The notes under the pieces: generated by a model
The model's database searches: none
The model's input: only the letters and a program-made list of their open reading frames with translations
What the model was told of the DNA's origin: nothing
Origin: an uncultured archaeon
GTDB lineage: Archaea > Asgardarchaeota > Thorarchaeia > Thorarchaeales > Thorarchaeaceae
Direction: 5' to 3'
NCBI GenBank assembly: GCA_964458565.1
Contig: CAYWJO010000049.1
Coordinates: forward strand, 1-25,032
DNA length: 25,032 nucleotides
Shown: positions 1 through 7,324 of the stretch, one piece after another
Layout: every line of letters starts with the position of its first letter
How positions within the stretch are numbered: position 1 is the first letter of the stretch
Position numbers and translations under genes: made by a program

Positions 1-77
1 GCTCTGGCGAGTGTCCTTGCTGGACTGTACGGATAGCAATCAGTGCTCGAGTGCTCAATTTCGCCCTCCTGAGTCAT
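1..77 (-). CDS. Possible 5' end of a divergently transcribed gene running off the window (MTQEGEIEHSSTDCYPYSPARTLAR...)
   Basis: ATG at 77-75 on the minus strand, preceded by GCAGGT and an AT-rich intergenic region (85-230). The frame is open to the window edge. No family recognised. Confidence 0.3.
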   Translation of the reverse strand, partial: MTQEGEIEHSSTDCYPYSPARTLAR

Positions 78-230
78 GTACCTGCCTATTTACTCGTTTA
101 TATATAAATATGCGGTCTTTTATTGTATTTATATGCATTTTTTAGTTTAATAGAATGCCTTTAAATATGCTTTATGACCGTTTTCAGAAAATTATCTTCA
201 TAAGTTTATTACTATTTATGTATAGAAATG

Positions 231-296
231 AGTGGGGATTATCACCTATCCTCCTGAATAAAGGATGAGTGAACCCCTCTGACCCAACAGGTCGGA
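231..296 (+). repeat. Structured left end / 5' leader of the TnpB element: two hairpins
   Basis: Imperfect stem GGGG..TCAC..ATCCT (from 234) / AGGAT..GTGA..CCCC (to 277), then TCTGACC-CAACA-GGTCGGA (278-296). This GC-richer island sits in AT-rich DNA. Confidence 0.55.
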
Positions 297-321
297 AGTT
301 TATTACTTTCAGGTGAGACGC

Positions 322-2115
322 ATGGGAACTTCAAAGGGTACGGTCATCAGTGTAAAAGTCCCGATAAAGTGGGATGCTATGACCGAGAGGCAGAAGACTC
401 GACTCTCTCGAATAACAAGTAGAGATACACGGGTGATTCAAGCCTTCCTTGGAGTGATTGCATATCACGAGAAAGAACTTCTTGTCGGAAAGAGAAACAA
501 GAAAGTCAACGGTGCGAAGCTGGAGAAGATAACACTCACAGCTGAGAGGTCTAGAGATGAGTCCAAACATAGGACTATTGTCCCTCATGACTTCAAAGAG
601 AGATTCCCGAATATATCATTGAATGAACTACAGGAATGCAGACAGGTCGCTGTTGCCATGTGGAACAGCTATCTTGCTCTGGAGGGCGAACATCCTATGA
701 AGAGCAAGGGATACAGACCCCGTAAACTTCCTAGATATGTATTCAATCGCAGGTTCAAGGTCATCTATACTCCTGAGAAAGAGATCAACCACTGGCTCAG
801 GCTCATGGATTCCCTCGACTCTGCAAAGACACCTGGGCACTACCACGACTACCTTATGATTCCTCTCAGTCCTTCCTCTTATCATCTGAATAAGATGAAT
901 GAAGGAAAGGTTACATCACTTCGCCTTCTCAAGGACAGAAAACGGAAGTGGTGGGCGGTCTTCTCTGTACGCGTCAATGTCCCCGATATCTCAAACGGTT
1001 CGAAGTCACCTGCTATCCTAGGGATAGACCTTGGAATAGACAAGGCTGTCTGTTCAGTGGTATTGACTAGGAGTAAGGTACGACATGCGAGATATTTCAC
1101 GCAGCATGATAAGGTGAAGCGAATCGAGAAATTAGATAGACGGGTAGACGCTCTACAACATGAGATGGACACACGATTGAACAATGGTATTCCAGCTGAT
1201 GATATTGTCCTAAAATTGAGAGCACTCAGCGGGAAACGGAAGAATGTCAGTATCGATGATGACAGAGTCTTAGTGAAACAACTCACTGAGCATATTCTTG
1301 AGTTATCAAAGAAATATGACCTCTACGTTGCTATAGGGAAACTTACGGGTATTCGTGACAGTGCCAATCGAGGTAGTGGGAAGAAAAAGTCCTTCCGCTC
1401 AAAAGTTGCCCGGTGGACCTTTGCACGATTCACAAACTGGCTCAGGCACTCCCTTGCTCAGCAGGGCTGGAAAGTCTCCGGTTACGGCTCGCGATTCTTC
1501 ACAATTCGTGAATATTGGACAAGTCGTACCTGCCACAAGTGTGGGCACATCGGAATCAGGCCAAAGCAGTCGTTGTTCATCTGTCACACGTGCGGATATC
1601 GTACCAATGCCGACAAGAACGGCGCTATCAACATAGCAAGGCGCCTTATCAGGTTCATACCCTCTCTGAGGGATGAAGACAATGGACTAGGGCAGTGGCT
1701 CTTGCCTCATGAGAGGTCGGGGTCAACCCTGAAGGCCTCAAGGAGCTCGCGCTCTAAGAGGAAGTCCAGACCCTCTTCGAAGTTGTCAGCTTCAGGAAGG
1801 GGGTCCGTGGCTGAGTGCCATACTCAGGCTTCTTTGACCGAGTTTGAGGGTACTACCGATCCAGCCATGGAAAGTGCCGCGGAAATACCGTCTGCCGCCG
1901 TTGACGCCCGAAAGGCAACTGACAGTCATGGCAGTACAGTGCAGCGGAGTGAAGCTCAGTGCCAAGAGAGAAGTGTTGCTTCGGTGACCTTGGACAAAGC
2001 CCGTGTACACGGGTCGGGAGCGGTCTCGACTCTTGCTGGTGACAGCAGTCGCGAGAAGGGTAGAACGCGGAAGTCAGAGGTCATAGAAGGGGTTCACTCA
2101 CCTTCTAAAGACTAA
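322..2115 (+). CDS. tnpB: TnpB/Cas12f-like RNA-guided endonuclease, RuvC-II-rearranged type, with long disordered C-terminal tail
   Basis: Numbering from the 313 ORF: RuvC-I ILGIDLG (D239), YVAIGKL (G342 at the usual Glu position), REYWTS (E400), zinc finger CHKC...CHTC, RuvC-III NADKNGAINI (D434). ATG 322 is preferred because AGGTGA lies at 311-316. Confidence 0.9.
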   Translation: MGTSKGTVISVKVPIKWDAMTERQKTRLSRITSRDTRVIQAFLGVIAYHEKELLVGKRNKKVNGAKLEKITLTAERSRDESKHRTIVPHDFKERFPNISLNELQECRQVAVAMWNSYLALEGEHPMKSKGYRPRKLPRYVFNRRFKVIYTPEKEINHWLRLMDSLDSAKTPGHYHDYLMIPLSPSSYHLNKMNEGKVTSLRLLKDRKRKWWAVFSVRVNVPDISNGSKSPAILGIDLGIDKAVCSVVLTRSKVRHARYFTQHDKVKRIEKLDRRVDALQHEMDTRLNNGIPADDIVLKLRALSGKRKNVSIDDDRVLVKQLTEHILELSKKYDLYVAIGKLTGIRDSANRGSGKKKSFRSKVARWTFARFTNWLRHSLAQQGWKVSGYGSRFFTIREYWTSRTCHKCGHIGIRPKQSLFICHTCGYRTNADKNGAINIARRLIRFIPSLRDEDNGLGQWLLPHERSGSTLKASRSSRSKRKSRPSSKLSASGRGSVAECHTQASLTEFEGTTDPAMESAAEIPSAAVDARKATDSHGSTVQRSEAQCQERSVASVTLDKARVHGSGAVSTLAGDSSREKGRTRKSEVIEGVHSPSKD

Positions 2116-2140
2116 GACAGGTCGGTGCATGCAGCCGAGA
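1690..2140 (+). ncRNA. Putative omegaRNA/sotRNA overlapping the tnpB 3' end
   Basis: Dense stems: GACCCTCTTC/GAAGGGGGTC, CTGAGT/ACTCAG, GCC-CGAAA-GGC, C(TTCG)G tetraloop, the palindrome CCCGTGTACACGGG, GTCGGGA/TCTCGAC and TAGAAGG/CCTTCTA. The encoded protein here is low-complexity. TnpB omegaRNAs are known to overlap the ORF 3' end. Confidence 0.7.
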
Positions 2141-2266
2141 ACATTAATGAGTAAGCCTCATCTTTGTATTGCAGATTCAAAAATATAGCTCATACAACCT
2201 GAAAATTAATCTATTATCCATAATATATATGACCAATCTTAGTAATTAGATTACAGGTGGTAGACG

Positions 2267-2734
2267 ATGGGTGAAACAAATCCAAAAATAACACTTCGAA
2301 TAAAAATCGATGAACTTGAAATAGAAGTTCAAGCAGATGGAATTTCAAATCTTGAGAGTGCTTATTTGTCACTCCTATATACGAGAACGAAGCTAGGAGA
2401 AATCAAGAGGAAGCACCAAGCTTTACTAATCGCTGAAGAGGCTAAAGAAAAGGCAAGTCGTTACTGGGTTGAAGCAGAAGGCAAAAGAAAACTCATTGGT
2501 ATTGATGATACACCCATCTCTATCATTTTATCTCTTTTAGACTCATATCCAGAGGGTAAGAAAGGTTCGACAGTATCTGAGGAAACTAGTGTCGGTCATC
2601 CAACAGTCAGCAAGTATTTTTCAGGTGCATACGGTGAACATGCAGCATTCTTTGAAAAGTGTAATAGTGAATGGAAACTTAGCTCAGAAGGTGTATTTTA
2701 CATACATAATTGGTTAAGCGAAAATGCAGAATGA
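2267..2734 (+). CDS. Hypothetical protein with probable C-terminal winged HTH
   Basis: SD-like CAGGTGG upstream. STVSEETSVGHPTVSKYFS is helix-turn-helix-like and WKLSSEG is wing-like. Confidence 0.6.
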   Translation: MGETNPKITLRIKIDELEIEVQADGISNLESAYLSLLYTRTKLGEIKRKHQALLIAEEAKEKASRYWVEAEGKRKLIGIDDTPISIILSLLDSYPEGKKGSTVSEETSVGHPTVSKYFSGAYGEHAAFFEKCNSEWKLSSEGVFYIHNWLSENAE

Positions 2735-2810: not shown

Positions 2811-3221
2811 ATGCCCCCTAAGGATATGAACATCATCGTGTTGGGATGCATGCAATGTATGTATGCAGCAGCAGACCTTGCAGGAACGATGAAGCTGCAG
2901 TACGATGTGAGTGCGAGGATAATCCGAATGCCGTGTACCGCACGATTGGATCTCAACTTCATCCTGAAAGCACTGCAAGAGGGGGCAGATGGAGTACTGA
3001 TCGTTGGATGTCATCCTGGGGACTGCGCATACAAGACCGGAAACTTGGGGGCAGAACGACGTGTCAGATTTGCGAGGAAGTTGATTGCAAGCCTTGGAAT
3101 CGACGAGCGTCGCGTGAAAATGGTGTTTGTTTCAGCAGCGGAGGGCGATAAGTTTGCAGAAGAAGTCAACACCTTTGCTGACGAGATACGCGCAATAGGG
3201 CCAAATCCAATCAGATTATGA
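2811..3221 (+). CDS. mvhD: Hydrogenase/heterodisulfide reductase [2Fe-2S] subunit MvhD/FlpD (all-Cys form)
   Basis: CxxCxYAAADLAG, IIRMPCTAR, GADGVLIVGCHPGDC and SAAEG..F...GPNP motifs; GGAGG SD upstream. Confidence 0.95.
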   Translation: MPPKDMNIIVLGCMQCMYAAADLAGTMKLQYDVSARIIRMPCTARLDLNFILKALQEGADGVLIVGCHPGDCAYKTGNLGAERRVRFARKLIASLGIDERRVKMVFVSAAEGDKFAEEVNTFADEIRAIGPNPIRL

Positions 3222-5803: not shown

Positions 5804-5901
5804 GCGTTTATGGATACAGCCAAGGGAAACAAGTTCGCAGAAGAAGTGAAGTGTCTACTGAGAAAATTCGGGTGATTGGGTCAAATTCGACAAGATTGTA
5901 G
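5804..5901 (+). pseudogene. Decayed copy of the mvhD 3' end (one frameshift)
   Basis: Translates AFMDTAKGNKFAEEVKC/TEKIRVIGSNSTRL* versus MvhD VFVSAAEGDKFAEEVNTFADEIRAIGPNPIRL*. Confidence 0.8.
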
Positions 5902-5969: not shown

Positions 5970-6581
5970 TCATTGACTGAGGAATGCCATCACCTTCTCA
6001 ATTAAATAGCAAGGGGTCTTGCCCAATATCCTACTGACATTTCCCTTTGAGGTCCCAGTAGCTTCTGCAATCTCTGTGGTTCGTTCCTTTTTCCAGATGT
6101 AACGGAAGCAGTATCGCAGTTGAGTTGTGGTAAGACCGAGAAGTGCTACATATAACAAGATTGCATTGATCACAATATTACTCTCTTCATCTGATGTATT
6201 CTCAGCAAACTTGAATCCAGCAGACCTGCTCATGTATTTTGCAATCTTTATCTCATTGAGTGCCTCTCTTGCATTCCAGAAGACTGGTCCATCGCACTCA
6301 TCAGCGTTTTTCTTCTTGATGATGACCTCTCCTGTGCCAAATCCCACTCGGAACTCAAAGCCTTCCATCAGCAGATTATGAAATAGGAATATAGCCGGTT
6401 GCCAACTACCAATCAAGAGTTCTATGCTATCTCCCTGTGTAAGCGTGGGAATAGCAAGGCAGTCATCCTTGAATCGCTCATATGTGTGGTTCAACAGGTT
6501 ACGAATTGTTCTATCCATCTTCTGTCGTTCTCGTGTATCTAGACCTCTTGACGCCATGATGTCGGCAATGACTGCAATCAT
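5970..6581 (-). CDS. satD: SatD family protein (class III nucleotide cyclase-like domain plus C-terminal HTH)
   Basis: AVIADIMASR, TQGDSI, FRVGFGTGEV and DGPVFWNAR motifs; C-terminal TTEIAEATGTSKGNVSRIL HTH. Confidence 0.8.
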   Translation of the reverse strand: MIAVIADIMASRGLDTRERQKMDRTIRNLLNHTYERFKDDCLAIPTLTQGDSIELLIGSWQPAIFLFHNLLMEGFEFRVGFGTGEVIIKKKNADECDGPVFWNAREALNEIKIAKYMSRSAGFKFAENTSDEESNIVINAILLYVALLGLTTTQLRYCFRYIWKKERTTEIAEATGTSKGNVSRILGKTPCYLIEKVMAFLSQ

Positions 6582-6587
6582 GTCGTT

Positions 6588-7079
6588 TCACCCAGTCAAC
6601 AAAAATCTGAAGATCCACCATGAGAGTGCTAAGGCCATCGTGATGCTCATGAAGGTACCTAGAATGTACCAGTCCGCACATGAACGATCATTGGTCTCCT
6701 TACTTGAGTATCTGAAAATCGCCTTACCCGCAATGACGATCGAGAGAAAGCTAAGAATAGATGAATATGACAATGCGCTGTCGAAATATGCTATCACAAT
6801 TGTCAGGAATATCAAGCTCCTCTCAACACATCCTATCAAATATCCCCCATATCTTAGACCTCCGCATCTCAATCCAATGTCCTCTCCAGATTCTTTTCCA
6901 ATCCCTCCAAAGATCAAGTCAATCACCAAGCCTGGCAAGAACAATGTCAATAGGTATCCCCATAGAATTATGGATAGATATGGTTCCAATGGGAACGACG
7001 GATATGCAACGGTCAGATAGAGAAATACAGTACTGATCACTGTCACCAGTAAACCCAAGATCCTTTGAACCAGCTTCAT
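6588..7079 (-). CDS. Multi-pass membrane protein, DUF3307/SatE-like
   Basis: GYLIGCVERSLI, KAIFRY and ADWYILGTFMS resemble the partner usually found beside satD; 4-5 TM segments. Confidence 0.7.
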   Translation of the reverse strand: MKLVQRILGLLVTVISTVFLYLTVAYPSFPLEPYLSIILWGYLLTLFLPGLVIDLIFGGIGKESGEDIGLRCGGLRYGGYLIGCVERSLIFLTIVIAYFDSALSYSSILSFLSIVIAGKAIFRYSSKETNDRSCADWYILGTFMSITMALALSWWIFRFLLTG

Positions 7080-7243: not shown

Positions 7244-7324
7244 ATGAACAAGAGATTCGCTAACGAGATCAACCGGTTTGCTGATGCGATACGAGCAATA
7301 GGTCCGAATCCGATCAGGCTTTAG
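7244..7324 (+). pseudogene. Second copy of the mvhD 3' end (26-codon mini-ORF)
   Basis: MNKRFANEINRFADAIRAIGPNPIRL*; 18 of the last 22 aa are identical to MvhD. Confidence 0.9.

Follow-up and report, generated by a model that had tools for sequence, protein, structure and literature searches.

TnpB proteins with a rearranged RuvC-II site have been published as the RIIr clades (PMC10691335) and TnpB2 (PMC10530073). As described there, they carry a Gly at the position of the canonical catalytic Glu, an alternative Glu before the zinc finger, and intact RuvC-I and RuvC-III Asp residues—all features that recur in the protein discussed here. For proteins of this type, RNA-guided cleavage of double-stranded DNA has been reported for the Fanzor2 ApmFNuc, where a mutant was tested and E467 is essential for cleavage, and for TvTnpB, where activity was found (PMC10530073). 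TvTnpB resides in an IS605 element together with TnpA; the locus described here instead has a predicted scaffold RNA of ~430 nt, a leader RNA in addition, and a guide other than the element's flank.

Several other systems resemble this locus in part. The Cas1H-Asgard-1/-2 groups (PMC10691335) share with it, as far as the main text of that paper describes them, an Asgard host, a GTTCACTCA motif downstream of tnpB, flanking complementary repeats, and a giant partner with weak Cas1-like motifs. That main text does not describe targets, a TAM or a self-promoter guide; it suggests a hypervariable stretch preceding the GTTCACTCA motif as the guide. At the present locus the corresponding stretch forms a stem whose sequence co-varies with that of the leader RNA, and the guide begins ~25 nt after the motif. 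Outside the TnpB family, the free-standing homing endonucleases (phage T4 Seg/Mob, collaborative homing; PMC13565253) offer a nuclease gene beside a conserved gene, a self allele protected by sequence differences, and a variable island between conserved genes, as here. [quoted passage not shown] Finally, Cas9 represses its own promoter using the 11-nt guide of a long tracrRNA (10.1101/2020.05.21.102756)—again a short own-promoter guide, placed beside the PAM or TAM and below cleavage length. The differences are that the protein here is a TnpB, that the target is an archaeal TATA box, and that the guide lies in an mRNA leader that probably borrows the 3' scaffold.

Here we describe a locus at the start of a 25,032-nt contig stretch (the window) from an uncultured Thorarchaeaceae archaeon. 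With moderate confidence, we read the RuvC-II-rearranged TnpB of the Asgard aCas1-linked group as an autorepressed, RNA-guided free-standing ("intronless") homing nuclease. Literature searches, whose coverage lay outside most subscription journals, returned no description of these guides. The features are as follows.

3–77, minus strand: probable first 25 codons of a giant, divergently transcribed partner gene, truncated where the contig ends; it probably encodes an aCas1 with a PD-(D/E)xK nuclease
197–201, plus strand: TAM-like TTCAT overlapping the BRE (TTAAT 35 times and TTCAT 17 times among 57 promoter matches)
202–213, plus strand: TATA-box target of the leader guide in the element's own promoter, an exact 12-nt repeat of 296–307
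230–295, plus strand: structured leader RNA (fold z=-2.2)
296–307, plus strand: putative 12-nt self-promoter guide, matching 202–213
322–1720, plus strand: TnpB folded core (WED, REC, RuvC and zinc finger) with rearranged RuvC-II, from homologs, model and structural matches
1690–2125, plus strand: predicted ~430-nt RNA scaffold beneath a disordered translated tail (no codon-position signature; fold z=-2.5 against shuffles); the 5' limit of 1690 is approximate and the ORF stop lies at 2115
2092–2100, plus strand: GTTCACTCA motif in a hairpin loop, marker of Cas1H-Asgard TnpB loci
2126–2142, plus strand: putative 17-nt 3' guide, an antisense copy of V-L-G-C-M-Q codons from a different mvhD allele
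2267–2734, plus strand: cargo ORF of 155 aa that separates the guide from mvhD; it occurs in 8 loci and has no Pfam match
2811–3221, plus strand: mvhD, the linked target gene, encoding the hydrogenase delta subunit FlpD (Pfam PF02662, E=5e-46)
2838–2858, minus strand: target site in the linked mvhD, with a TAM ending in AT at 2858–2855 and the protospacer at 2854–2838
5970–7079, minus strand: SatD-family/HTH gene and small partner gene in the cassette region

The tnpB reading frame spans 313/322–2115 (plus strand) and encodes 597 aa counted from ATG 322, with D236 (nt 1027), G339 (nt 1336), E397 (nt 1510), D431 (nt 1612) and a C4 zinc finger formed by C404, C407, C421 and C424. An earlier note on this DNA named the right residues; its numbers (G342, E400, D239 and D434) count from GTG 313 and have been replaced. 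The rearrangement that it saw is real and both Asp residues are intact, as it said: across 120 homologs, D236, G339 and E397 are 100% conserved and D431 99%, which also answers its proposed check on the conservation of E400 (= E397). G339 aligns with the catalytic Glu of AsCas12f. In mimivirus Fanzor2 (chain 9b0l), the IGKL motif aligns with the G339 motif, and E467 (residue number counted from the printed alignment) with E397. In the AlphaFold model, which is mostly confident up to about residue 465, E397 lies just after strand 392–396 (DSSP) in a confident region. The protein has the TnpB/Cas12f fold with split RuvC and C4 zinc finger. Because the model matches Cas12f, TnpB and Fanzor2 chains across residues 7–445, the N-terminus is an ordinary WED/REC lobe rather than the divergent one that had been proposed.

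The comparison with Fanzor2 (ApmFNuc, PDB 9b0l) extends to the same rearranged motifs; however, RuvC-I here reads DLG, the host is archaeal, and Cas12f chains score equally well or better in both sequence and fold. The protein is not a Fanzor by host, a term that calls for a eukaryote or eukaryotic virus—gene neighbourhood and homologs are archaeal—and type V CRISPR-Cas was likewise set aside, with no CRISPR array beside the effector in positions 1–2400 of the window. The earlier assignment to a RuvC-II-rearranged TnpB, predicted to be active, in an Asgard host holds: homologs and loci are mostly named Thorarchaeota where they are named at all, and 30 of 36 same-family genomes have a match. 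A fresh origin of the rearrangement does not hold, since Gly or Ser with the alternative Glu occurs in 81 of the 92 nearest 50%-identity clusters and the clades are published. The 11 canonical clusters form one outer group in a quick-search tree that has no bootstrap and no Fanzor rows. Taken alone the rearrangement is ordinary: its class is already catalogued, and within a broad radiation it is the ancestral state.

The family is present in several copies and forms. The genome itself holds six further full or partial members (on contigs C79, C68, C7, C39, C55 and C11), that on C79 retaining leader, promoter target and partner and that on C68 being without the promoter target. A subfamily (L037, L108, L113, L157 and L158), 33–38% identical and short-tailed, has neither leader RNA nor giant partner; it is multi-copy with sharp ends and is possibly an ancestral mobile form.

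The remainder of the reading frame behaves differently from the core. Residues 468–597 have pLDDT <50, identity by codon position in the tail is 0.74/0.70/0.66 as against 0.77/0.84/0.48 in RuvC, and the ORF stop varies from 40 to 270 codons past D431 across homologs. Since the tail lacks protein constraint while its DNA folds, the product is best described, from sequence and model, as a ~465-aa nuclease, with a ~430-nt scaffold under the translated tail. The "unusually long" protein of the earlier note is thus withdrawn; its span of 322–1650 does cover the folded core, and the folded core only. As a weak hint of transcription, RNA contigs from two metatranscriptomes cover 1696–2000 and 1731–1955 with no differences; no exact RNA piece over the TnpB core was found among the matches listed for these two metatranscriptomes, and mapping, with contigs only, showed no joint across the element. 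The GTTCACTCA motif downstream of tnpB is found here and in many relatives, and Rfam has no match for leader or scaffold. Motifs resembling RNase P were considered and discarded, with no Rfam match and with the genome's own RNase P RNA located elsewhere.

Scaffold pieces also occur beyond this copy. Contig C5 of the same genome carries broken pieces of a closely related scaffold at 141578–142199, split by a small insert; they lie at the contig end, 4 kb past a cupin gene, and are probably the left part of the same island, with no mvhD 5' stub after the cupin gene on that contig. In the closest homolog (L289, 82%), positions 1–140 hold a second scaffold 3' end fused directly before the leader; there the promoter target is lost and two mvhD guides lie downstream.

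The evidence that carries our reading is the relationship between the 3' guide and mvhD. Among 33 distinct guides, variation falls mostly at wobble positions and likeness to mvhD ends after position 17 (positions 1–8 are partly fixed by the search pattern, whereas 9–17 are free). As a copy of mvhD codons, the window's guide departs from the linked allele at wobble positions. This allele retains an AT TAM and an 8-nt seed match, and mismatches the guide at positions 9, 12, 14 and 15; the best foreign allele, sampled like the others from other species, has 2 mismatches in 17 nt. In 28 mvhD-linked loci, not one guide is identical to its own allele across the first 11 nt, where 6.7 would be expected (permutation, P=8e-5; related loci are not wholly independent in the statistics given here). 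Over 17 nt, 3–7 mismatches separate a guide from its own allele and 0–3 from the best foreign one, and the match to the linked allele breaks at position <=6 in 13 of the 28 loci. Linked alleles are more often without the AT TAM (18/28 vs 9/27, P=0.03) and have more amino-acid changes at the target site (1.7 vs 0.8). Ancestry alone is insufficient to explain this avoidance, because sister loci flip reciprocally at position 9 (L001/L264, L015/L016 and L011/L229). A second TnpB lineage at mvhD uses a register shifted by 4 nt, also behind AT and also mismatched. The own genome has no AT-flanked site with a prefix match to the guide of >9 nt.

Self-avoidance of this kind is what selection against self-cleavage would leave, and we regard this footprint as the best indirect evidence for in vivo activity of the rearranged site. 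It also departs from IS200/IS605 logic, in which the guide is the right-end flank; that model was rejected because the guide copies, in inverted orientation, another allele of a gene that lies 700 nt away. Eight further loci (L211, L213, L218, L222, L242, L249, L255 and L257) have mvhD-directed guides upstream of mvhD and no tnpB in the fetched DNA, which is as short as 0.4 kb (L242); their guides are still mismatched to the linked allele, and L218 has three.

The surroundings of mvhD fit a mobile island. The gene occupies a variable slot that is bounded by a conserved acyl-CoA dehydrogenase/cupin pair and by conserved downstream genes, lies 0.1–0.8 kb from the guide across mvhD-linked loci, and in one empty locus (L221) directly follows the cupin gene. 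In L269, L272 and L288, mvhD 5' stubs lie 1.8–13 kb upstream and break at codon 10–11, inside the guide target. These loci hold the marks of free-standing homing: an adjacent conserved target, a differing self allele, susceptible alleles, and empty loci. Further along the window, extra copies of the mvhD 3' end (5804–5901 and 7244–7324) separate cargo cassettes; many relatives, whether or not they have TnpB, show similar mvhD tails, so the mvhD 3' end appears to be a second insertion hotspot.

The recurrent upstream neighbour of tnpB is a giant gene of ~1600–1800 aa, divergently transcribed and present in 73 loci. In the window, frame 77–3 (minus strand) is the top match of the partner N-terminal HMM (E=0.036 among 106,736 six-frame genome segments); since the profile ranks this frame first, the contig likely starts in the partner gene and tnpB here is probably not the solo gene that it had been called. 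The left end of the island lies beyond the assembled contig. The partner carries an invariant PD-(D/E)xK motif set together with invariant H172, D179 and D182 and an N..N motif in Cas1-like spacing; it is a putative aCas1, its Cas1-like motifs being weak. A single-sequence fold of the partner (pLDDT 38) was not used, and PDB and ESM Atlas searches were uninformative. The canonical Cas1 of this genome is encoded on a different contig and matches none of the TnpB loci.

This partner opens an alternative to homing, RNA-guided integration, in which the giant Cas1-like protein would insert the element, together with a recoded replacement 5' end, at a site that TnpB has marked or cut. The invariant partner motifs speak for it, as do mvhD stubs that break inside the target and a family spread over many unrelated sites, which homologous repair alone leaves unexplained. 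However, likeness to Cas1 is weak (hhalign E=0.079, probability 0.7%; no Pfam or NCBIfam match), several guide-bearing mvhD loci are without the partner or without TnpB as well, and no conserved terminal sequence was defined. As a replacement for homing we think integration unlikely, though the strongest of the rivals; because the family occupies many unrelated sites, partner-mediated integration may operate as well as homing.

Relatives also carry guides for other genes. The rRNA genes of relatives were used because no rRNA is assembled in the own genome. Relatives located 1–11 kb from a 16S gene have up to four guides matching 16S over 12–27 nt, behind AT-ending motifs, and their resident 16S carries ~30-nt inserts within the guide targets; guides of other relatives match tRNA genes, and relatives carry 2–4 irregular handle-plus-guide units. 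A genome-wide guide search gave a modest AT enrichment (9/57 vs 8/177) with an uncertain guide register, and an unconstrained search of guides against short flanks returned mostly noise. Guides of L049 and L150 are similar to 16S variants that contain an intron at the 1492 site, a hint that intron alleles compete. The guide of a relative, L119, matches 13–16 nt of a sequence that occurs five times in the genome of the window (C1 and C64), not behind AT.

Such targets might also suit a nuclease that kills or excludes competitors: it would destroy incoming DNA, or fusing cells, carrying mvhD or 16S alleles unlike its own, and would not itself be copied; this would leave the same self/non-self pattern, and the targeted genes are conserved and important. 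Killing needs no targeting of a neighbouring gene, yet the targets are adjacent to the nuclease (mvhD and 16S at the distances given above), and IMG/VR holds no exact match to guide plus TAM. We judge this explanation improbable.

The second guide lies in the leader. The 66-nt leader RNA shares its final handle with the 3' RNA, and it is followed by a 12-nt copy of the TATA-box region whose only TAM-flanked copy in the assembly is 202–213. Among 82 distinct loci, 56 show an exact match between leader guide and promoter of at least 10 nt, as against 3.5% in a cross-locus control, and the match never exceeds 15 nt; TTAAT or TTCAT (TTMAT) precedes it in 52 of 57 cases. Within a locus, identity is 0.89–0.98 at positions 1–12 and falls to background by position 15, while between loci it is 0.25–0.53 at variable positions. 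Leader positions 267–285 are complementary to the terminal stem of the 3' scaffold, and this complementarity co-varies by locus: the cognate duplex reaches -23.0 kcal/mol and non-cognate ones -18.5, with no permutation below -20.0. We infer a pairing in trans, with the leader standing in for the 3' arm of that scaffold stem, much as a crRNA pairs with a tracrRNA. Twelve to 16 bp are enough for cleavage by ISDra2 TnpB (PMC12803034), and therefore the leader guide is safe only if the present enzyme needs a longer duplex. In one genome, L133 and L135 are 92% identical across partner gene and leader up to the start codon and differ in their TnpB genes, which suggests module swapping at the leader.

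A purely regulatory role has to be weighed at this point, with TnpB binding without cutting and both guides tuning its own promoter and mvhD through partial matches. The conserved leader guide is consistent with it, as is the 8-nt seed with AT TAM retained at this locus, a combination that permits binding by ISDra2 TnpB (PMC12803034). A regulator, however, would keep its match to the host allele, and the seed breaks and TAM losses counted among the 28 loci run against this; moreover, the catalytic residues are invariant and inserts in the host's own 16S block the 16S guides. Regulation as the only use is in our view slightly less probable still than competitor killing.

Cas1-type integrases make duplications of ~14 bp. 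That the "guides" are such target-site duplications of an ordinary mobile TnpB, or that the leader copy, ~26 nt before the ATG, is a second TATA box, is very improbable and largely refuted, given that the copies co-vary at locus-specific positions and that the 3' guide is inverted relative to mvhD, 700 nt away, and systematically unlike the linked allele.

We return, then, to the autorepressed homing nuclease. One promoter would give rise to the leader RNA, tnpB, the long scaffold and the 3' guide. TnpB with the 17-nt guide would cut the mvhD alleles of other cells behind an AT-ending TAM. Synonymous mismatches would protect the linked allele, in many cases together with amino-acid changes or a lost TAM. 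With the donor copy as template, repair would then bring in the resistant allele along with the neighbouring tnpB, partner gene and cargo; in some cases a 5' stub of the former mvhD would stay behind, such as those seen in relatives. Meanwhile, the leader RNA may pair with the scaffold's terminal stem in place of its 3' arm, so that a leader guide of 12–14 nt would park TnpB on its own TATA box without cutting and repress it. Because the short guide matches its own promoter and the longer one matches only the mvhD of other strains, TnpB probably spreads like a self-limiting natural gene drive.

A bolder version is possible, and we hold it only tentatively: a reprogrammable chromosomal gene drive of Asgard archaea, in which the Cas1/Cas4-like partner would write 17-nt guides from rival alleles of a neighbouring conserved gene (mvhD, 16S or tRNA), TnpB would cut those alleles and spread the island, and the split leader RNA would repress the nuclease, with the conflict driving synonymous recoding of mvhD and mini-introns in rRNA.

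The RNA parts described here give the uncharacterised aCas1-TnpB group a testable function, and they supply predictions—a short AT-ending TAM, the end of the scaffold, and guide lengths of 12–14 nt for binding as against 17 nt for cutting. If the homing reading is true, this TnpB has departed from transposon-flank logic to become an RNA-guided free-standing homing nuclease; it would account for the variable islands beside mvhD and the mini-introns in Thorarchaeota 16S, and it would show a step towards the splitting of tracrRNA and crRNA and towards multi-guide arrays.
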